Shown in pieces: positions 9,256 to 36,545 of a stretch of DNA of 36,545 nucleotides. This DNA comes from a virus (Duplodnaviria > Heunggongvirae > Uroviricota > Caudoviricetes), in IMG/VR virus record IMGVR_UViG_2585427736_000013; one strand, given 5' to 3'. A model generated the notes under the pieces. It had not been told where the DNA came from, did not search any database, and saw nothing but the letters and a program-made list of their open reading frames with translations. Within the stretch, counting starts at the first letter, position 1, and every line of letters starts with the position of its first letter. A program made the position numbers and the translations under genes.

Positions 9256-9798
9256 ATGGATATAAAAACATTAAAGGAGTGTATAAAAATAGAAGTTATA
9301 GGCGGAAACCATGAGTTTTCATGGAGAAAAGCTTTAACTCGCACCAGACGCAATAGGCGAAAACACTTTATGTTTTGGTGGCGAGTGGCCAGCTATCTAT
9401 ACAGCAGAGGAGGGTTCATGCGCCGGGTGGGCAAACGCATCGGAGCAAACCTTCATCGCGATTATAATGTTGAGATTCCTTTAACAGTGAGTATAGGGCC
9501 AGGCTTAGATATTGCTCACTTATCAGGTATTGTTATTACAGAAAACTGTGTGATAGGGAGAAATCTACATATAAAGCAAGGTGTTACTATTGGTCTAAGA
9601 ACCCCTTCCAATGAGGCAATGATTACTATTGGAGATAATGTTGATATAGGTTGCAATTCATCTATCCTTGGTGGGCAAGTTAATATCGGTGATAACGTTA
9701 CGATAGGTGCTCATGCTCTGGTAACAAAATCTATTCCTTCCAACTCAATATATATAAACGAAATAACTCCCGTTATAAGACAAAAAAAGGCGCAGTAA
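9256..9798 (+). CDS. hexapeptide-repeat (left-handed beta-helix) acetyltransferase, cargo gene
   Basis: 180 aa with repeated [LIV]-G-x-x-x-x hexapeptide units (IGPGLDIAHLSGIVITENCVIGRNLHIKQGVTIG...); visibly AT-rich relative to flanking phage genes. Confidence 0.8.
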   Translation: MDIKTLKECIKIEVIGGNHEFSWRKALTRTRRNRRKHFMFWWRVASYLYSRGGFMRRVGKRIGANLHRDYNVEIPLTVSIGPGLDIAHLSGIVITENCVIGRNLHIKQGVTIGLRTPSNEAMITIGDNVDIGCNSSILGGQVNIGDNVTIGAHALVTKSIPSNSIYINEITPVIRQKKAQ

Positions 9799-20583: not shown

Positions 20584-22335
20584 ATGATTCAGGACGCTTT
20601 TGTGCGCCAGCGTGCGCGGCAACTTTACTGGCAGGGTTATCCGCCCGCAGAAATATCACGTCTGATGGGAATAAACCCGAACACGATTTATGCGTGGAAA
20701 AAACGCGACCAGTGGGATGAAACGCCACCCGTGCAGCGTGTCACGCAGTCCATCGATGCGCGCCTCATCCAGCTTACTGAAAAACAGAATAAAACAGGCG
20801 GTGACTTTAAGGAAATAGACCTGCTGACCCGGCAGCTTAAAAAACTGCATGATGGCCAGCCGGATGCGACGGCCACAGGAAAGAAAGGCCGGGCGAAAAA
20901 ACTCAAAAATCATTTCACGCCGGAACAGATTGCCGCACTGCGGGAAAAAATCATCAGCAGGCTGGAGTGGCATCAGCGGGGCTGGTTTGACTCCCTGACC
21001 CTTTGCAGGGAAGCCGGGATACGTAACAGGATGATCCTGAAATCCCGACAGATTGGGGCGACCTGGTATTTTGCACAGGAAGCACTGCTGATGGCGCTGC
21101 GTGACGATGTGGCGCAACCTTACCAGCGTAACCAGATTTTTTTGTCTGCGTCGCGTCGTCAGGCGTTCCAGTTTAAAAGCATTATTCAGAAGGCCGCGGC
21201 TGAAGTTGATGTGGAGCTGAAAGGGGGCGATAAAATCATCCTCTCCAACGGCGCAGAGCTGCATTTTCTCGGCACTTCTGCTGCGTCGGCACAGTCCTAT
21301 ACGGGCAATTTTTATTTTGATGAATTTTTCTGGGTCAGTCGCTTTGCTGAATTGCGCAAGGTGGCTGGCGCTATGGCAACCCTCAGCGGACTGCGGCGCA
21401 CCTATTTCTCCACGCCATCCACCGAAACGCACGAGGCATACGCCTACTGGAACGGCGACCGCTGGAACGAGAAAAAGGCCTCGCATAAACGCCAGCGTTT
21501 TTCTGTGGACTGGAAAACGCTGCATAACGGGCTTATCTGCCCTGACCGGACGTGGCGGCAAATTGTCACGCTGGAAGATGTGGTTAATCACGGCTGGAAA
21601 CACACCGATATCGACGAAATTCGTGATGAAAACACCGAAGACGAGTTCCTCAATCTCTATATGTGTGAGTTTGTCCGCGAAGGGGAATCGGCATTTAACC
21701 TGAATATCCTGATTGGCTGCGGTGTTGACGGATACGACGACTGGAAAGACTGGAAACCTTTTGCTCCCCGCCCGATGGGGAATCGTTCGGTATGGATTGG
21801 GTATGACGCAAACGGCAGCAGTGGCAACGGCGACAGCGGCGCTGTGTCCGTGGTGGTTCCTCCGGCTGTTCCTGGTGGCCGTTTTCGAACGGTGGAGACG
21901 AGACGCGTTCAGGGGCTGGAGTTTGAAGAACAGGCCAGAGTCATTGAAGAGTTCACGTATCGCTACAACGTGGAACACATCGGCATTGATGTGACGGGCG
22001 GGAACGGGGAGGCTGTTTATCAGATAGTGAAACGGTTTTTCCCTGCTGCTATTCCGTACACCTTCACGCTGTCATCAAAACGGTCGCTGGTACTGAAAAT
22101 GCTGCAAATAATGCGTGCCGGGCGATGGGAATACGATCGCGCCGAACGCGAGCTGGTCGCGGCCTTTAACGCCGTGCGTAAGGTGAAAACACCGGGCGGC
22201 TTTATCACTTACGAAACGGACCGCGCGAGGGGGATCAGCCACGGCGACCTTGCGTGGGCAACCATGCTTGCTGTCATTAACGAACCGATTGGCGGCGAAG
22301 GAGAAAACGAGCGTTTCACGGTTATGGAGTTCTGA
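20584..22335 (+). CDS. P: terminase large (ATPase) subunit P
   Basis: 583 aa; GGGGGA Shine-Dalgarno; size and position of P2 P. Confidence 0.95.
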   Translation: MIQDAFVRQRARQLYWQGYPPAEISRLMGINPNTIYAWKKRDQWDETPPVQRVTQSIDARLIQLTEKQNKTGGDFKEIDLLTRQLKKLHDGQPDATATGKKGRAKKLKNHFTPEQIAALREKIISRLEWHQRGWFDSLTLCREAGIRNRMILKSRQIGATWYFAQEALLMALRDDVAQPYQRNQIFLSASRRQAFQFKSIIQKAAAEVDVELKGGDKIILSNGAELHFLGTSAASAQSYTGNFYFDEFFWVSRFAELRKVAGAMATLSGLRRTYFSTPSTETHEAYAYWNGDRWNEKKASHKRQRFSVDWKTLHNGLICPDRTWRQIVTLEDVVNHGWKHTDIDEIRDENTEDEFLNLYMCEFVREGESAFNLNILIGCGVDGYDDWKDWKPFAPRPMGNRSVWIGYDANGSSGNGDSGAVSVVVPPAVPGGRFRTVETRRVQGLEFEEQARVIEEFTYRYNVEHIGIDVTGGNGEAVYQIVKRFFPAAIPYTFTLSSKRSLVLKMLQIMRAGRWEYDRAERELVAAFNAVRKVKTPGGFITYETDRARGISHGDLAWATMLAVINEPIGGEGENERFTVMEF

Positions 22336-23381
22336 TGAGCAGAAAAAATAAAAAAATGCGCATGAGTTCACGCATTGATCTCGCTGATGCGCTCAGGAAA
22401 GAATCATCGCTCAGTGCATTCACATTTGATGGTCCTTATTGCCTGACCGGGCATGACCTGCTGGACAATATGTACTGTGCTGATAACGGGCGGTGGTATG
22501 AAACCCCGGTGGACTGGTACGGTCTGGCAAGAGCCGCCCGGCAAACGTCCTGGCATCAGTCTGCGCTTTACTTTAAGCGCAATGTATTGCTCGGTTGCTA
22601 CATCCCGCACCCGCTGCTTTCCCGGCAGGATTTCTCGGCGCTGGCGCTGGACTGGTTTGTGTTCGGTAACGCATTCCTTGAGCTTCGGAGCAATATGCTC
22701 GGCGAACCGCTTAAATTACGGCACGCCCTGGCGAAATACATGCGACGCGGAAGTGATCTTGAATCATGGTGGTATGTGCAGGATGGCAAGGATGCGTTTC
22801 AGTTTCGCCCTGGCAAAGTGTGCCACCTGATGAATCCGGACATTAACCAGGAAATCTACGGCATGCCGGAATATCTTGGCGCATTACTCTCGGCCAGCCT
22901 GTCTCATTCGGCGGACATGTTCAGAAAACTGTATTACGACAACGGCTCCCACGCCGGGTGCATCATCTACATCGGTGCAGCGCAGGTAAACCGCGAAAGC
23001 ATGGACTCCCTGAAAGAAACGTTACAGGGGGCACGTGGTGGTGGTGCGTTTAAAAACGTGCTCATTCATGCGCCCAACGGGGGCAAAGAGGGGGTGCAAA
23101 TTTTGCCGTTCCAGCAGATCACCGCAAAAGATGAGTTCATGAATGTTAAGGCGGCATCCCGTGATGATGTGCTGGCTGCGCACCGCGTTCCGCCGCAACT
23201 GATGGGGGCGATGCCGGGCGAAAAAAGTGCGTTTGGTGATGTGGAGAAGGCCGCGCGGGTTTACGCAATTAACGAGCTGATGCCCGTCATGGAGGCCATG
23301 AAGCACATCAATGACTGGCTCGGCGAAGAGGTGATCCGCTTTAACCCTTACGCACTGTTAGACACCCAGCCCACATCCTGA
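22335..23381 (+). CDS. Q: portal protein Q
   Basis: 348 aa; start overlaps P stop (TGATG). Confidence 0.95.
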   Translation: MSRKNKKMRMSSRIDLADALRKESSLSAFTFDGPYCLTGHDLLDNMYCADNGRWYETPVDWYGLARAARQTSWHQSALYFKRNVLLGCYIPHPLLSRQDFSALALDWFVFGNAFLELRSNMLGEPLKLRHALAKYMRRGSDLESWWYVQDGKDAFQFRPGKVCHLMNPDINQEIYGMPEYLGALLSASLSHSADMFRKLYYDNGSHAGCIIYIGAAQVNRESMDSLKETLQGARGGGAFKNVLIHAPNGGKEGVQILPFQQITAKDEFMNVKAASRDDVLAAHRVPPQLMGAMPGEKSAFGDVEKAARVYAINELMPVMEAMKHINDWLGEEVIRFNPYALLDTQPTS

Positions 23382-23906: not shown

Positions 23907-24263
23907 ATGGAAATGAATATGAAAACTGTAACTGATGATGAATTTCGTGAGAACCTGAGTGAAATTCTGGATTACCTTTCTTCCGGTGGCAGTGTCGTTA
24001 TCACGGCGCAGGGAGGGAAGGATGTTGTTCTTGCTGGTTCTGATCTTAGTCCTGAAATACGGGCTGTCCTTGGCAAAACCAAAAAACTGCGGGATCAAAT
24101 AAACAAAATGAAGCAACCACTCTTAATAAATGCAGTGAGAGATCTGGAAAAACGTCATCCAGCTCTTGTCGCACAGAGAAAAAAAGGATTGTCTTTTGAA
24201 GATGCAATGAAGCGTACAAGAGAAAAACATGCGGATATCATTAAAAAGCTTGAGGATAACTGA
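23907..24263 (+). CDS. phd: Phd/YefM-type antitoxin (long form, 118 aa)
   Basis: N-terminal region resembles the Phd/YefM fold (FRENLSEILDYLSSGGSVVITAQGGKDVVLA); stop overlaps doc start (TGATG); three in-frame ATGs within 12 nt, so the exact start is uncertain. Confidence 0.7.
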   Translation: MEMNMKTVTDDEFRENLSEILDYLSSGGSVVITAQGGKDVVLAGSDLSPEIRAVLGKTKKLRDQINKMKQPLLINAVRDLEKRHPALVAQRKKGLSFEDAMKRTREKHADIIKKLEDN

Positions 24264-24670
24264 TGGACATAGTGTTTTTGTCAAAAGAACAAGTAGAACG
24301 TATCCATGCTGAAACTTTACCCCAGAGCGGAAATGCCAATGACGGGCTACTTGAAGGTGCTTTAAATCGCGTCAGGACACTACACTACTATGAAGGGGTT
24401 GATGATATTCATGCTCTGGCTGCTATGTATTTGATTGGTATAGCTAAGGCTCATGCCTTTCATGATGGGAATAAACGCACAGCTTTTCAGGCTGCATCAA
24501 TATTTTTAATGATGAACTCTTCCGAACTTTCAAACTCCCTGCTGCTGGTTAAATTAACGGTGTTTTCAGCAATGGGGATAGCTACCCTTGAGGAAGTTAC
24601 CTTTGCTTTGAAATTGCTGTCTGATTATGGCAATGAATTAATCAGCGACTACGAAGAAGATTATATTTAA
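24263..24670 (+). CDS. doc: Doc (death-on-curing) Fic-fold toxin
   Basis: 135 aa containing the Doc-type motif HAFHDGNKRTA. Confidence 0.85.
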   Translation: MDIVFLSKEQVERIHAETLPQSGNANDGLLEGALNRVRTLHYYEGVDDIHALAAMYLIGIAKAHAFHDGNKRTAFQAASIFLMMNSSELSNSLLLVKLTVFSAMGIATLEEVTFALKLLSDYGNELISDYEEDYI

Positions 24671-24836: not shown

Positions 24837-25172
24837 TCATTCATGCGTTTTTTCTTCATGGTCTGTCACTTCTCTCCTGATAAATTCATTGCACAAATCA
24901 ACGCACTCATTGCAGATGTAAACAGACGGTCCGGCAATCAGCTTTGTGACTTCGTACTGGGATTTATTGCAGAAGCTGCAATAAATCGTCTTCTCGCCTG
25001 AAGTCCATGTTTTGCTGGTTTCGCCAGACATCAGTTGTTTGATGTCTTTTTCACGACGAAGAACTATCCGGCCACATTCAGCTATTTTTTGGATGTTGAC
25101 ATTTTCTTCTTTCGCCAGCGCTTCCATTCGCTCAATCAGTCGCTGCGCTTTTTCTCTGTCAATGTGTTGCAT
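24837..25172 (-). CDS. small protein with C-terminal ClpX-type C4 zinc-binding domain
   Basis: 111 aa; residues 64-100 ([38 protein letters not shown]) closely match the N-terminal zinc-binding domain of ClpX as recalled; AAGGGG Shine-Dalgarno. Confidence 0.8.
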
Positions 25173-25206: not shown

Positions 25207-25230
25207 CATCAGGGCGGATGCGCCCTGATG
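25207..25230 (-). terminator. strong hairpin between parR and the zinc-binding-domain gene
   Basis: perfect 10-bp stem CATCAGGGCG/CGCCCTGATG with 4-nt loop, 6 nt past the parR stop; weak U-tract. Confidence 0.4.
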
Positions 25231-25235
25231 TTGTG

Positions 25236-25547
25236 TTATTCGGGAAATAATGCCCGGATATTTCCGGCCATCTGACTGGTTATCTGTGCGGTTGGTACTG
25301 GCTGTGACACGGGGCGTTCTGTCCTGGTTTGTGTCAGGGATAACGCTTCATCGTCAGCCCATGCAGCCAGTCGGTAAGCCTCTGCCGGATTAATTTTCAT
25401 AAGTGCCAGTCCGGCCAGAAAAGCCACGCGTTGACCACTTTTGCGGGCTTCTGGTGTAAGGCTGTCCAGCCAGGCGCATGCTTCGCCTTCGTTCTTGACG
25501 GCGGCGGGCTTCAGATAGAAACTTATCCGTCTGGTTGGTGTCGTCAT
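25236..25547 (-). CDS. parR: ParR/StbB-like centromere-binding protein
   Basis: Track frame 25236..25682; start placed at ATG (rc of 25545-25547) with AAGGAG Shine-Dalgarno just after parM stop; N-terminus resembles plasmid R1 ParR as recalled. Confidence 0.7.
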   Translation of the reverse strand: MTTPTRRISFYLKPAAVKNEGEACAWLDSLTPEARKSGQRVAFLAGLALMKINPAEAYRLAAWADDEALSLTQTRTERPVSQPVPTAQITSQMAGNIRALFPE

Positions 25548-25551
25548 TGGT

Positions 25552-26511
25552 TTACTCCTTGTCCATTGCGTACAGCCCATTAACCAGAGCAAACTGTGGC
25601 ACCCCGTCCGCGATGAAAGTCGCATTAACTCCGCAGGCTTCGCGGATAGCGGGTGCCACAATCTCCGCCCCGCCACCGACAACCATCACCCGCCCGTAAC
25701 CCGAAAAACCCGCCAGCGCGCGGATCACGCGTTGTTTCAGTGTTTCTTCCTTTTCACGAATAACCGCCATCAGGCTGGCGTAATGCGCGTCATTGTGGAT
25801 GTGCTGGCGCAACCAGGCTTCATCATGGCGATGTTCGATAATGGTATTGGCGATGTGGTGACTGGTACGCATACCGTTAGTGGCCATCACCGACAGTACG
25901 GCATCGGCCATCAGGGAAACGCCTACGTGTGGATCGCAAAACACCTGGCTGATACCTGCCAGTTGCCCCTGAACCTTTGCCACATCCAGTGTGGTTCCGC
26001 CTAAATCCACAATCAGCAGGGATTCAAACGGACTCATGTCAGCCAGTGCCTTAAAGCCAGCCGGAATGGATTCAGGCATAACCCGTACGTTACGGATAGT
26101 GAATGCTTCGCCGTTCTGGTACTCCACCGGGCGCATGACGTTCGCTTTTTTGCGGTTGATGTTGGCCATGTCCGGCTGTGCGTTTGTGTCGAAATATTCG
26201 CTCAGTGGCAGGGTGACAACCACATCCACTTCCTGTGGTGTGATGCCTGATTTGACCAGCGCGTGGTGAATGGCGATTACATTCACATCGCTGTACTGGT
26301 ATTGCGTGTCGGTCGTCTGGACAAAGCGATCGCTGACCGGATCAAAACCATAGCGCACGCCATCAAGCATGTAGTTCGCGGGCTGCGTGCCACCGAACGG
26401 CGCAGACCATTCCGACTTGAAGCTGTTCGGGCTGATGGCGTTGCGGCGTTCGCCGTTCTCAGTCCATGCCAGCTTGATGTTGGTGGAGCCGTCGTCGATA
26501 CAAATTTTCAT
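25552..26511 (-). CDS. parM: ParM/StbA-like actin-type segregation ATPase
   Basis: 319 aa; extended similarity to plasmid R1 ParM as recalled (IDDGSTNIKL, ISPNSF, QYSDVNV, RKKANV, VMPESIPAG, LLIVDLGGTTLD, GGGAE, LVNGLY). Confidence 0.85.
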   Translation of the reverse strand: MKICIDDGSTNIKLAWTENGERRNAISPNSFKSEWSAPFGGTQPANYMLDGVRYGFDPVSDRFVQTTDTQYQYSDVNVIAIHHALVKSGITPQEVDVVVTLPLSEYFDTNAQPDMANINRKKANVMRPVEYQNGEAFTIRNVRVMPESIPAGFKALADMSPFESLLIVDLGGTTLDVAKVQGQLAGISQVFCDPHVGVSLMADAVLSVMATNGMRTSHHIANTIIEHRHDEAWLRQHIHNDAHYASLMAVIREKEETLKQRVIRALAGFSGYGRVMVVGGGAEIVAPAIREACGVNATFIADGVPQFALVNGLYAMDKE

Positions 26512-26660
26512 GTAGCTTTTCCTTATGTTGATTAATTAATCGGTTACAGGATTTTTAAATCCCGCTTTTGCCTGTTTTGTGCGCGCTTCATATATCGCGG
26601 CGCGTTTTTTGCTCATTTACGGGATTTGTGAGTCCCGTTTCTGTCTGTTTTTTGTTTCCA
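26512..26660. promoter_or_regulatory. candidate parC-like centromere/promoter region upstream of parM
   Basis: Two units of palindrome plus CTGTTTT-containing direct repeat (26547-26581 and 26620-26654) flanking a GC hairpin with T6 (26581-26610); the second unit overlaps the 3' end of gene A. Confidence 0.35.
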
Positions 26661-29410
26661 CTGGTCAGGCTACCCCGCAGCAGGTCTGCTTTGCGGTGGG
26701 CGCGTTCAGTGGTTTCACTGATTCTCTGTGCGTGCTCTGCGTCACGGATGGCGCGCAGCATGTCAGAAAGCACGGTAACGGGGGTTTTCATGGTGTTCTG
26801 GTCCTGCTGAAGTGTGGATGCCAGACGTGCGGCGGCTTCGGGGTCTGATGCCCCCAGTTGTTCCAGATAGCTGGCGACCGGGTTATGGCGGATCTCTGTG
26901 CTGCTTACGCCGTGATTACGGCTCAGGCGCTGCCAGAACTGCGTGATTCGGCTGTCCGGGCGGGTATCCGGTTTGCGTACAATTTCAAATCCCTGCGGTG
27001 CAATGATGCTACCGTCAACGTACAGGCTGCCGCCCCGTAACAGGTGCTGCATCTGCTGTTCACCGATATGCAGGCCGAGAGATTCGGCAGATTCCCGCCA
27101 TTCTTTAGCGAGTAATTCGTGGTTATCAGGCAAAGGCCGCTGCTGTTTGCGGCTCTGTGTCCAGCTCTGCATTTCATCACTGCTGTTTTTTGCCTGTTTG
27201 TCACGAAGCGAACGCATCAGCGCCCGGCGTTCGTGCCGTTTCAGTGAGCGCATCCATTCGTTCACTTCAACGCCGTCAGGGAGCTGCGGCCACGGTGCTG
27301 GTCGTTCTTCCGGCTGTTCTGTCCCGTTGTTGTCCGTTTCCTGTACACGGGGACAGTTATTGCCACGAGTCCAAGGGGCGGCAGGGCCGCCCTGAAGGTC
27401 AAAACCATTTTCGCGGGCGCTGTCTTCCGCTTCCGGTTTGCGTCTTACCAGCTTCCAGTTATCCGGATGCGTGCATACGCGGGAAGACTCCCCGATGAGT
27501 GGTGACCAGATCCCGTAAATCTGTACGCTCTGTTCGCCGTAATCGTTCAGCTCATCGGCGAGGTCGTAGGCGGTGCGAATCAGGTAGTCTTTACGTGGAA
27601 CAAGTACGCCACCCTGTTTTTCAATGTAGGAGGCAAAACACCCGGCATCGGCGGCAGCGAGTACCGCATCCATTGCGTCATTCTTCAGCCGTTGCGGGCC
27701 TTCCGGGTTGCGTGCCATCTGGCTGGCAAGGCGGCGGAGTTCACGCCACACCTGACGGGAGGGAATGCCAAAGAACTGGAACTGGCGGACCCGGTGAAGG
27801 CGCGCCCAGCCGATGGCGCGTTCCACGCTCTCGGCCATTGATTTTCCTGTTTCGTGGTCAACGCGTGGCTTGCCCGTTTTCGGGTCGATGCCATCCACGG
27901 CGCGGCTGTCCAGGTTCTTTCCGATGTAGGTGGCGATGTAGCTGGTTGGTGTGCCTTTTGAGCCGTCGACATACTCCACCTTAAAGCGTGGGGTAATATC
28001 ATCACCCAGCTCGTGGCGGTCTTCCTGAATGGCAATATCGCGGGTGATGGCCACGATGCTGTCGATTTCTTCCGGATGAGCAAAGACCATCATGTGCCAG
28101 TGCACGGTGCCGTCATGGTGAGGCTCCACCGTGCGGATGCCATACCAGCGCAGGCCGTCGCGGTTCAGTTTTTTGCGGACCGCCGCAAAAAACGTGTTAA
28201 CCAGGTAATCGCTGGAGTCGCGCATAGTGGCCCCGTTCCATTTGGGGTTCGGATGACCGTTCTCTGTTGTGGCGTGGTATTTTGACGGGCAGGTGACAGT
28301 CAGAAACACCGCTTTGTCGCCACGGGCTTCGGCCAGAAGTTCCAGCCCCTTCATGGTGGCCATCATTTCTGCCTTACGGTGAACCGGGTTACTTACTCCC
28401 GCGTAATACACTGTCTCAAGATCAATCGTGAACCCGTCTTCGTTTTCCAGCATGAAACTTTTCAGGAAATCGCGTGTTTTCTCGCGCTGTGCGCGAAACT
28501 CGCTTAACGCGTCCTGGCTCAGATAGGGTGATGTTTTTCTGGAAACCAGACAGGCGGCGCGGAGTTGTTCTTCTCTCCACTCGCAACGTAACAGCCACAG
28601 TTTGCGTTTCCACCAGTCCGCACAGGTCAGGCGAAGGATTGCGCCCGGTAACAGTTCCGTATCCGGTGCGTTCCTCCGGTCCTTGTCTGTTGTCAGTGCG
28701 TCATAATGCGGCGGCATGGTGTGCAGATGTAACGCCATGCGTGCCAGCATCTGATATGCCTTCAGCGCCACCTCCATGGTCAGTTCACCATCGGTCGCAC
28801 CAAAGTTATCGCAGAGTGTTTCGAAGGTGCTGCTGAACATCGCCGCTGTCATAGTGGCCAGCGTCTGTATCTGGTGCTTGTTGAGCTGTGGCAGGTAAAG
28901 CAAATCGTCCAGGCGTTCACGTCCGGCAAGGGAGCGATAACCCGGAGTTAGCCAGCGACGGTCGGTGCGGTCCAGACGTTCGAATATTTTGCGCAGGGTT
29001 CCGCGCGCGTAACGTTCAGCCTGCCAGTTCTTTTTTCCTTTCTGGCGATCGGCTTCCTGTTTTTTGCGCAGGAAGGAGAGGTGGCGAATAAGCGGGTCGC
29101 GCAGATAGGACGGCAGCAGGCGCAGCGAGGCCATGGCTTCATCCACCGCGCCGCGTGCCTGTCTTCTGGCGTCTCCTGCCAGCGTGATGGTTTTGTCCTG
29201 TTTTTCCTGTGCGTCCAGGCTTTTATTAATCAGGTTGCCCAGTGGCGTGGCGGAGAACGCCGCATCAGCCTTTTCCTGGCGGCGCTCGTTCTCTGCCCGG
29301 TAGGCATCCAGCCAGGAGGAAAGCGCGGATTCAGGAGCGGGGATCCCCGTTCCTTCACGCCCCACTGCGTGGCGCGGTTGTTGCCAGTCCCTGATGTACT
29401 CTGCCGTCAT
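26588..29410 (-). CDS. A: replication initiation endonuclease, gpA-like (rolling-circle HUH family)
   Basis: 940 aa with HUH-type motif (TVHWHMMVFAH); position upstream of the cos-side accessory slot. Confidence 0.88.
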   Translation of the reverse strand: MTAEYIRDWQQPRHAVGREGTGIPAPESALSSWLDAYRAENERRQEKADAAFSATPLGNLINKSLDAQEKQDKTITLAGDARRQARGAVDEAMASLRLLPSYLRDPLIRHLSFLRKKQEADRQKGKKNWQAERYARGTLRKIFERLDRTDRRWLTPGYRSLAGRERLDDLLYLPQLNKHQIQTLATMTAAMFSSTFETLCDNFGATDGELTMEVALKAYQMLARMALHLHTMPPHYDALTTDKDRRNAPDTELLPGAILRLTCADWWKRKLWLLRCEWREEQLRAACLVSRKTSPYLSQDALSEFRAQREKTRDFLKSFMLENEDGFTIDLETVYYAGVSNPVHRKAEMMATMKGLELLAEARGDKAVFLTVTCPSKYHATTENGHPNPKWNGATMRDSSDYLVNTFFAAVRKKLNRDGLRWYGIRTVEPHHDGTVHWHMMVFAHPEEIDSIVAITRDIAIQEDRHELGDDITPRFKVEYVDGSKGTPTSYIATYIGKNLDSRAVDGIDPKTGKPRVDHETGKSMAESVERAIGWARLHRVRQFQFFGIPSRQVWRELRRLASQMARNPEGPQRLKNDAMDAVLAAADAGCFASYIEKQGGVLVPRKDYLIRTAYDLADELNDYGEQSVQIYGIWSPLIGESSRVCTHPDNWKLVRRKPEAEDSARENGFDLQGGPAAPWTRGNNCPRVQETDNNGTEQPEERPAPWPQLPDGVEVNEWMRSLKRHERRALMRSLRDKQAKNSSDEMQSWTQSRKQQRPLPDNHELLAKEWRESAESLGLHIGEQQMQHLLRGGSLYVDGSIIAPQGFEIVRKPDTRPDSRITQFWQRLSRNHGVSSTEIRHNPVASYLEQLGASDPEAAARLASTLQQDQNTMKTPVTVLSDMLRAIRDAEHAQRISETTERAHRKADLLRGSLTSGNKKQTETGLTNPVNEQKTRRDI

Positions 29411-30452: not shown

Positions 30453-31283
30453 TTACTTCACCGGAACAAACGGAACAGCGGTATTGCTGGTCATGTATTG
30501 CGGTAGCGTGCCGTTCCATTTGTTGATTGCTTCCAGCTCCATAACGCCGGGATTCTGGCGCAGAGCTTCACCGCGTAAACGAATGGCGTCGGCTTCAGCC
30601 TGGGCTTTTGTGCGAATGGCATCAGCCTGTCCGGCAGCTTCTGCGCGCAACATGTTGGCTTCTGCTTCGCGTTGCTTGACTTCCTGTTCGCGTTGCAGGG
30701 TTTTCTGGTTTGCCGTGACTTTGGCGTTAATGCTGTCGATAACGGTTGGCGGATATTCCGGTTTACCGACATAAGAGAGGCTCATGACCTGAATGCCGAT
30801 GGGGGTCATCTCTTCCTGAATATCTTTAAGTGCTGAATCCAGCAGTTCAGACTTGCCACCGTCGATGAATTTATCGGTGGTCATTTTGCTGGCCAGTCGG
30901 TTGAGTGCGTCGGCGATCTTCTGGCGCAGGTCAGTGTCGGTAATGTCGTCCACGCCTTTGCGGTAGGTCTGAAACACTGTGGTAACTTTGGATGGATCGA
31001 CCTTGTAGGCCACGCCGATGTGATAGCCGATGGTTGTGCCGTCACTCATCTGGAAGCTGAACGGGTCATCGTAGGTCTTCATTTGTTTGAAGGTCGGGAA
31101 GATGTAAACCTCGGTATTCCAGCCAGTCCAGTAGCGGCCAACGCCAACCACTTCGCCAACGCCTTTGTCGTCGCCCAGCTTATTGACTTTGATGCCCACA
31201 TTACCTGGCTCAACGCGATCGCAGCCAACCAGCAGGATGGCGGCAAAAAGCGGGAGAATCTGAAAGAGTTTGAATTTCTTCAT
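30453..31283 (-). CDS. SPFH/band-7 (stomatin-prohibitin-HflK/C-like) lipoprotein
   Basis: 276 aa; signal peptide with lipobox LLVGC; SPFH-like core followed by Ala/Glu/Arg-rich coiled-coil tail. Confidence 0.75.
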   Translation of the reverse strand: MKKFKLFQILPLFAAILLVGCDRVEPGNVGIKVNKLGDDKGVGEVVGVGRYWTGWNTEVYIFPTFKQMKTYDDPFSFQMSDGTTIGYHIGVAYKVDPSKVTTVFQTYRKGVDDITDTDLRQKIADALNRLASKMTTDKFIDGGKSELLDSALKDIQEEMTPIGIQVMSLSYVGKPEYPPTVIDSINAKVTANQKTLQREQEVKQREAEANMLRAEAAGQADAIRTKAQAEADAIRLRGEALRQNPGVMELEAINKWNGTLPQYMTSNTAVPFVPVK

Positions 31284-35537: not shown

Positions 35538-36545
35538 TTGGAGGGGCTAATCATGTCGATTAAGCAACTCAAAGACGGACGTTATAAGGTTGATGTAAGA
35601 CCACAGGGTGCTGAGGGTAAGCGGATTCGAAAAACCTTCACCCTGAAATCGAAGGCCCAGGAGTTTGAGAGGTATGTTTTACAGAATTTTCATGACAAGC
35701 CGTGGCAGGCAAAACCAGCTGATCAGCGGCGGTTATCTGAACTGATAGAGGACTGGTGGATGCTTGACGGACGTAATCAGCCTTACGGAGATTCCTACAG
35801 GGTCAGGCTGGAAAAGGTGATACGTGAAATGGGAGATCCACGCGCCAGCCAGATGACGCGAAAATTTATGCTTGAATATCGGTCAGAGAAATTACAGGCC
35901 GGATTAATGCCGTCCAGCATTAATCGTGACTTGTGCGTTTTGTCAACGATGTTCTCAGTATTGATTGAGACGGAGGTTTTTCACAACGCGAACCCTGTAC
36001 GCGGTATACGCAAACTGAAAGTTCAGAACACAGAAATGGCCTTTCTTTCTGATGATGAGATTGATCGGCTTCTTGAGCGACTCGAAGGTGATGCGCGTCG
36101 TGTCGCCATTCTGTGTCTTTCTACGGGAGCTCGGTGGGGTGAGGCGGCGGAATTACGTGGGGAGCATATCGTCGGTAATCGCGTGACGTTCTTCAACACC
36201 AAGAACGGGAAGTCTCGTTCGGTTCCGGTGTCTGATGCCGTGCTCTCGCTGATTAAAACCCGCCGAACCGGGCCGCTGTACGATGTCGATTATCTCCGGT
36301 TTCGCGAGATCCTCCAGGAGGTGAAGCCTGATTTGCCAAAAGGACAGGCTACTCATGTGATGCGTCATACGTTCGCCACGCATTTCATGATGAACGGGGG
36401 AAACATCGTTACCCTGCAACGGATTCTGGGACATGCCACTATTCAGCAAACGATGACTTATGCGCATTTTTCACCGGACTTTTTACAGGACGCAATCAAC
36501 TTTAATCCGCTGGCTGAAAGTGTCCATAAACTGTCCATCGATTAG
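35538..36545 (+). CDS. int: tyrosine integrase
   Basis: 335 aa ending at TAG 36543-36545; C-terminal catalytic region with HxxR and conserved Tyr (HVMRHTFATHF...LGHATIQQTMTYAHF); start TTG 35538 or ATG 35553. Confidence 0.93.
   Translation: MEGLIMSIKQLKDGRYKVDVRPQGAEGKRIRKTFTLKSKAQEFERYVLQNFHDKPWQAKPADQRRLSELIEDWWMLDGRNQPYGDSYRVRLEKVIREMGDPRASQMTRKFMLEYRSEKLQAGLMPSSINRDLCVLSTMFSVLIETEVFHNANPVRGIRKLKVQNTEMAFLSDDEIDRLLERLEGDARRVAILCLSTGARWGEAAELRGEHIVGNRVTFFNTKNGKSRSVPVSDAVLSLIKTRRTGPLYDVDYLRFREILQEVKPDLPKGQATHVMRHTFATHFMMNGGNIVTLQRILGHATIQQTMTYAHFSPDFLQDAINFNPLAESVHKLSID

Follow-up and report, generated by a model that had tools for sequence, protein, structure and literature searches.

An R1-type parM–parR module and a candidate ParR-binding site beside replication gene A of a P88-like, P2-type prophage

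The partition loci of the plasmids R1 and NR1 (ParMRC; parA/stb) are type II DNA-segregation modules, in which a cis site, parM and parR follow each other in this order. In the low-copy plasmid R1, the cis site parC contains ten iterons of 11 bp, arranged as five plus five direct repeats that flank the promoter. Related or analogous machineries are found in prophages. In CGP3, an integrated prophage of Corynebacterium glutamicum, the adaptor AlpA binds repeats (alpS) in front of its own operon; induction occurs early, and in mutants of the AlpAC system the copy number of the phage DNA drops by about half. The P1-like phage-plasmid D6, which encodes StbA and StbB, is a 91-kb non-integrating plasmid prophage, for which partition has an evident role. 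The present study deals with a parM–parR pair in a stretch of 36,545 nucleotides from IMG/VR record IMGVR_UViG_2585427736_000013 (the window), which holds a P88-like (Xuanwuvirus) P2-type prophage. On balance, this locus is probably a functional DNA-segregation module of the R1 type, which has become part of the replication region in an integrating P2-like phage lineage and which positions extrachromosomal phage circles. The features on which this reading depends are the following.

25236-25547, minus strand: parR, encoding a ribbon-helix-helix-type adaptor of 103 aa; 4 nt separate its ATG from the stop codon of parM
25552-26511 (stop codon included), minus strand: parM, encoding an actin-like ATPase of 319 aa with Pfam and PDB matches
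26544-26654, minus strand: candidate parC, composed of two 38-nt repeat units and a 35-nt spacer that contains the gene A stop codon
26546-26565: candidate proximal ParR box, with 2 mismatches to the consensus and its GGG at -52 from the parM ATG
26619-26638: candidate distal ParR box, 73 bp away from its proximal counterpart and differing from the consensus at 1 position
26588-29410, minus strand: gene A, encoding a replication initiator of 940 aa (Pfam Phage_GPA, E 1.3e-129)

An earlier note, made by a model from the sequence alone, had recognized both genes as parM and parR. These identities are borne out by profile searches against Pfam and PHROG and by the match to the structure of R1 ParM. 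The length of 319 aa given for ParM stands as well, but ParR counts 103 aa instead of 104, because its ATG is located at 25547. ParM matches StbA_N (PF06406, E 1.8e-82) and the ParM C-terminal domain (PF21523, E 1.3e-68), and it aligns end to end with the R1 ParM structures (PDB 1mwk, E 9e-93) at approximately 47% identity. The protein is an actin-fold ATPase of the ParM/StbA family that shares all nucleotide-binding motifs with its R1 counterpart. These motifs, i.e., D6-D7-G8-S9-T10 (DDGST), E147, D169, G171-T174 (GGTT) and G279-G281, are intact and invariant in an alignment of 12 sequences. Compared with other members of the clade, parM has a dN/dS of 0.02-0.09 at dS values up to 0.25, and the gene is under strong purifying selection.

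ParR belongs to the same Pfam family as the R1 adaptor (PF10784, Plasmid_stab_B, E 2e-25) and matches PHROG 2515, annotated as 'partition protein' (E 1.7e-57); a search against the PDB sequences gave no match. Across 61 alleles, the N-terminal sequence TRRISFYLKP is invariant and the C-terminal NIxxLFPE is conserved, with a hypervariable linker in between. This layout of an N-terminal beta-strand and a C-terminal tail is also that of R1 ParR (KRRTIAFKLNP ... KKNAMKLIN), and the gene directly downstream of parM thus appears to encode an adaptor with a DNA-binding N-terminus and a putative ParM-binding C-terminal tail. With a dN/dS of 0.23-0.48, parR is more relaxed than parM, and the changes cluster in the linker. 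Strongly divergent ParR alleles are found behind a nearly invariant ParM.

The order of cis site, parM and parR is shared with R1 and NR1, but there are differences. The carrier is an integrating phage instead of a low-copy plasmid, the module ends a phage early operon, and its cis site would comprise two inverted-repeat boxes, of which the distal one overlaps the end of gene A, in place of direct iterons around a promoter. The AlpA/AlpC/alpS system of CGP3 offers an analogy for the proposed role, as handling of excised, replicating phage circles may be common to both. AlpC nevertheless represents another actin-like family: ParM scores 25.7 bits against Pfam ALP_N, below the cutoff of 26.3, and is a member of the ParM/StbA family, so that the likeness is a functional one. 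Gene order (alpA precedes alpC), host phylum and phage type are different too. D6, on the other hand, does encode an R1-type ParM, with 48% identity, and its annotation notes a similarity to StbA of P88. The D6 protein falls outside the clade of ParMs from P2-like prophages, and the repeats upstream of its gene, which are of a TCTCA type, are unrelated.

The presence of two repeat units upstream of parM, each with a palindrome and a CTGTTTT-type repeat, had been proposed in the earlier note, together with a possible role as a parC-like site for ParR. A repeat search indeed finds a 38-nt direct repeat at 26544-26581 and 26617-26654, the copies being 79% identical and 73 nt apart. Each unit consists of an A-rich arm (CTGTTTT on the plus strand) and a palindrome, for which 74 distinct upstream sequences from 142 P88-like loci give the consensus ACGGGATT-N4-AATCCCGT. 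This 20-nt palindrome pattern has only two matches in the 36.5-kb window, with 0.17 expected. The intergenic part upstream of parM measures 76 nt only, and the distal box falls within the final 20 codons of gene A, a point that the earlier note does not mention. As a separate observation, 11-mers with at most 2 mismatches to the half-site AAATCCCGTAA occur 22 times in the window against 8.5 expected, a number reached in 0 of 100 shuffles, which may be compositional.

One indication for a function of these boxes comes from distant relatives. The box as defined on the P88 clade, GGG-N10-CCC, occurs exactly twice upstream of parM in P88 (at -125 and -52), in the Hafnia locus L002 (-128 and -55) and in the Plesiomonas locus L004 (-131 and -59), which corresponds to a spacing of 73 bp, 73 bp and 72 bp, respectively. 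The DNA around the boxes cannot be aligned between these three clades, and their ParM proteins are only 62-63% identical. When the Hafnia and Plesiomonas regions were shuffled, at least two such boxes appeared in 0.02-0.14% of cases; a pair at 72-73 bp spacing was seen in 0 of 5000 shuffles of each region. In five loci of the Serratia/Enterobacter sub-clade (L005, L006, L011, L147 and L148), an inverted repeat with arms of approximately 20 bp (GGGAACnAnATAGAAAAAT / ATTTTTCTnTTTCnTnCCC), about 30 nt apart, takes the place of the two 16-bp boxes. Close to the ribosome-binding site, these loci have a third half-site as well, and they also contain a TTTAAACGGC palindrome.

The boxes are also kept with parM when the gene in front of it differs, be it an A gene of 940 aa, one of 871 aa followed by an open reading frame (ORF) of 93 aa, or one of 768 aa followed by an ORF of 159 aa. 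In locus L102, where gene A has 871 aa, the 20-codon tail with the distal box ends the separate 93-aa ORF. In L183, the distal box is intergenic and lies behind the P2-sized A gene of 768 aa and its 159-aa neighbor. In both loci, the similarity to the window starts just 5' of the distal unit. Beyond the P88 clade, the upstream gene is an ORF of 167 aa in Hafnia and of 71 aa in Enterobacter, and there too the boxes remain with parM. In these comparisons, the C-terminal part of gene A is a mosaic. Since the boxes stay in front of parM behind different upstream genes, gene A of the window ends by read-through into the cis site of the par module. For the same reason, the idea that the boxes belong to gene A or to its origin was rejected.

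The half-site AATCCCG resembles the R1 parC iteron core AAACCCA, which is in line with the related beta-strands of both ParR proteins. The strength of a possible RNA hairpin is not conserved, amounting to -10.7 kcal/mol for the P88 consensus against approximately -4.5 kcal/mol in Hafnia and Plesiomonas, and therefore the site is more likely read on DNA. Because the box pair recurs with its spacing in distant relatives and travels with parM, the upstream repeats are a credible ParR-binding site, as the earlier note had supposed.

The state of the prophage can be read from two genes at the ends of the window.

1-1293: serS of the host, at the start of the window
35538-36545: tyrosine integrase gene, at the end of the window

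The presence of host serS on one side and of a tyrosine integrase gene on the other indicates that the prophage is integrated, in agreement with the earlier note. The region shares 94-97.5% identity with several phages, among them Escherichia phage P88, Xuanwuvirus P884B11 and Citrobacter phage phiSM, and its match to the E. coli CB6837 chromosome is 100%. The parMR stretch is present in 1308 of 5426 complete E. coli genomes (24%), in up to 3 copies in some of them. Out of 1456 copies, 1454 are chromosomal and 2 are on plasmids. The module hence does not reside on a low-copy extrachromosomal replicon, as R1-type systems do, and the copy in the window lies in the prophage beside serS. The element is not a phage-plasmid in the usual sense either: it has a partition system, but it is integrated and carries a tyrosine integrase gene, and among the genes that were annotated or scanned with Pfam, the P2-type rolling-circle protein A is the sole replication initiator observed.

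The nearest ParMs beyond the P88 clade come from Plesiomonas (63% identity), Hafnia (62%), Serratia (58%) and Enterobacter (54%). In all four genera they are encoded by P2-like prophages in which gene A is followed by parM, either directly or after one or two small ORFs, and then by parR, variable cargo and the portal gene. Among 208 fetched loci, every ParM with at least 54% identity is in a P2-like context, with a gene A match inside the fetched DNA in nearly all. ParMs of 53% or less have no gene A or portal match near them, with the exception of four Enterobacter-clade prophage loci at 53.9%. In a neighbor-joining tree, the ParMs from a P2-like context form one clade (bootstrap 70) that is nested among plasmid ParMs, and that includes a sub-clade of P88, Plesiomonas and Hafnia proteins with a bootstrap of 100. 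Given this nesting, a plasmid ancestry, one of the options raised in the earlier note, is plausible for the genes. In a collection of 50,697 phage records, an R1-type ParM was confined to the P88-like phages and the plasmid prophage D6, and scans of IMG/VR yielded almost exclusively P88-like loci. In addition, the E. albertii locus L008 is 100% identical to the window in ParM and 96% in gene A, but only 30-35% in portal and terminase and 53% in ParR. The replication-par block is exchanged between P2-like phages whose structural backbones differ greatly.

The statement in the earlier note that partition machinery is unexpected in a P2-type phage is therefore overstated. The module is a backbone feature of P88 and Xuanwuvirus and of the P2-like prophages in the four genera mentioned. 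It is already annotated as well: RefSeq labels the proteins 'plasmid segregation protein ParM' and 'plasmid partitioning/stability family protein', and each of them has a PHROGs family. Searches of a literature library turned up no work on ParM in P2-like phages. In the P88 paper the module goes unmentioned, and the phiSM paper only lists the ParM gene as a putative 'fitness' gene, without any test.

The following working mechanism is proposed. P2-type rolling-circle replication yields monomeric circles. ParR dimers would bind the two palindromic boxes just upstream of parM, which together offer four AATCCCG-type half-sites over their spacing of 73 bp, and the conserved C-terminal peptide of ParR would capture the ends of ATP-ParM filaments. 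Filaments growing between two ParR-bound phage circles could then push these apart. In this way, the module would spread or position the monomeric circles made during replication; alternatively, the benefit may be that an unintegrated genome is retained in both daughter cells. Expression of parMR is expected after infection or induction, during the phase in which the phage genome replicates outside the chromosome, because the two genes come last in the early operon behind gene A and no sense-strand terminator was called between gene A and parM. In four loci, scanning of the DNA upstream of parM revealed no promoter, a result that is uninformative, as the scan of R1 parC likewise missed the experimentally known R1 par promoter. 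The analysis shows the gene identities, the purifying selection, the conservation and mobility of the box pair, the phage-specific lineage and the chromosomal location; we infer ParR binding to the boxes, filament formation, timing of expression and benefit for the phage. Of the three functional ideas in the earlier note, co-option of the filament system for positioning phage DNA seems to fit best.

Several elements weigh against this proposal. The cis site has only four half-sites in two palindromic boxes, compared to the ten iterons of R1 parC, and the boxes might serve solely as an operator. The Serratia/Enterobacter sub-clade has another layout, with a wide inverted repeat GGGAAC...GTTCCC. 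An autoregulated promoter may drive parMR in lysogens too. Moreover, it is not obvious why a phage of 35 kb with a short lytic cycle should need to position its DNA actively. Finally, a circular record of 34,461 bp from a cat E. coli isolate (L001; NZ_CP148288.1, pZ1323PEC0009-2), which was submitted as a plasmid, comprises an entire P88-like genome and would fit an episomal state as well.

This record is one argument for a facultative plasmid state, in which the phage would exist as low-copy circular episomes besides being integrated and would secure its inheritance by ParMRC, as in D6. The completeness of the R1-type par locus and the fact that D6 is the sole other phage with such a ParM point in the same direction. 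Yet a phage 100% identical to L001 is chromosomally integrated in the sister strain Z1323HEC0067, and spontaneous induction also yields circular phage-sized contigs. L001 is the single circular phage-sized 'plasmid' record against the 1454 chromosomal copies; the other small 'plasmid' match, from Shigella, is a linear fragment disrupted by IS1 and was rejected as an episome. All examined relatives in which that prophage end was captured have the integrase and P2-type immunity genes, and no plasmid-type replicon accompanies protein A. A facultative plasmid state is for these reasons unlikely, as is a stable plasmid lifestyle; the episomal phase suggested in the earlier note finds little support. 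A function in the lysogen is, to our judgment, a little less probable still. ParR, with or without ParM, would then act in trans, through incompatibility with or exclusion of superinfecting related phages or of plasmids with a cognate centromere, or it would provide another benefit to the host. P2 keeps its exclusion genes tin and old in a hotspot between gene A and the portal gene, and parMR borders the corresponding hotspot. Strong diversification of ParR behind a nearly invariant ParM is what conflict might give; the presence of up to three copies in some genomes and the 'fitness' listing of phiSM would also agree. On the other side, neither ParM nor ParR matches a PADLOC defence family, the DNA-reading N-terminus of ParR and the boxes are conserved, the variation is located in a linker next to a recombination hotspot, and the module is fixed across a deep phage lineage, unlike the cargo of the hotspot.

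Another view accepts the genes as real but sees the repeats as a mere autoregulatory operator, or as lacking a centromere role, and the module as a hitch-hiking plasmid remnant of little use to the phage. The low number of boxes compared to R1 and the one and two mismatches to the clade consensus in the window are consistent with this. It is nonetheless improbable in view of the strong purifying selection on parM and the retention of the module over 54-63% ParM identity and five host genera, with position and box spacing conserved. Very improbable is the explanation that the repeat units act as RNA hairpins or intrinsic terminators and not as protein-binding DNA sites. The stems of the P88 clade do reach -8.7 to -10.7 kcal/mol, a T-rich run follows each hairpin on the plus strand and one of them is flagged as terminator-like. 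However, that strand is antisense to parM, and the T-tails are found there only. The stems of Hafnia and Plesiomonas are reduced to GGG/CCC without any terminator call, while box length and spacing are kept.

The surroundings of parMR include the following additional features.

22335-23381: portal gene
23907-24263, plus strand: phd (Pfam)
24263-24670, plus strand: doc (Pfam)
24837-25172, minus strand: gene for a ClpX zinc-finger protein of 111 aa (Pfam, E 8.5e-18; PHROG 6797, unknown function)
25207-25230: G+C-rich, terminator-like hairpin of 10 pairs just 3' of the parR stop codon, with a T-rich tail on the plus strand only

On the minus strand, gene A, the 76-nt gap, parM, parR, the G+C-rich hairpin and the ClpX zinc-finger gene follow each other, with parMR co-directional with A. 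Beyond these lie phd and doc on the opposite strand and then the portal gene. The module is thereby located between gene A and the portal gene, the map position of the P2 tin/old region (TO hotspot, between A and portal gene Q), as the earlier note had observed. The hairpin at 25207-25230 is probably the end of the par transcription unit. In contrast to the tin/old cargo of P2, parMR is fixed next to A, and the variable segment starts after parR or within its 3' part, so that ParR alleles recombine at the edge of the hotspot, as in L008. Depending on the locus, parR and the portal gene are separated by 0.5 to 4.2 kb, which places the true hotspot beyond parR. With its position beside gene A fixed across clades and no PADLOC match, parMR was rejected as hotspot or defence cargo. 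The same holds for a conserved maintenance cassette of phd-doc and parMR, as the earlier note had envisaged: among 118 P88-like loci, phd-doc is found together with parMR in 1 and the ClpX zinc-finger gene in 22.

Some of the neighboring genes deserve mention in their own right. In the cargo slot, phd-doc is a toxin-antitoxin pair that is convergent with parR, and Doc has weak matches to the PADLOC candidate families PDC-S23 and PDC-M59B. The ClpX zinc-finger protein, encoded directly after parR, combines an N-terminal half of unknown nature with a ClpX C4 zinc-finger domain that stands by itself; possible effects are mimicry or titration of the binding of adaptors or substrates to ClpX. Elsewhere in the window, the early region upstream of gene A encodes an SPFH/Band 7 family protein of 276 aa (30453-31283, minus strand; Pfam, 7.5e-31), which is unusual cargo for a P2-type early operon. 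A hexapeptide-repeat acyltransferase of 180 aa (9256-9798, plus strand) is encoded beside the tail-fibre assembly gene, at the position of the P2 Z/fun hotspot, and is possibly a lysogenic-conversion gene. At the matching place, L001 has an annotated 'transferase'.

For annotation, the presence of the module in about a quarter of complete E. coli genomes means that a 'plasmid segregation protein ParM' call is no evidence of a plasmid contig. The two-box cis site forms a compact candidate centromere or operator, which can be compared directly with R1 parC. If ParMRC acts in the phage life cycle, it would give the best-understood bacterial actin a second natural context, and one that is readily testable, as P88 and phiSM are inducible and plaque-forming. 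Cytoskeletal organization of DNA is already known from jumbo phages (PhuZ) and from CGP3 (AlpAC); small temperate coliphages would then also organize their DNA by a cytoskeletal motor. More tentatively, as a possibility rather than an expectation, a large lineage of P2-like temperate phages may have incorporated an actin-like segregation machine into the core of its replication module. It would serve to organize monomeric circles derived from rolling-circle replication for replication and packaging, or else to support an episomal (carrier) state that is facultative and heritable and exists beside integration. If so, roughly a quarter of E. coli strains would hold a dormant centromere and actin motor in their chromosome, which are switched on at induction.

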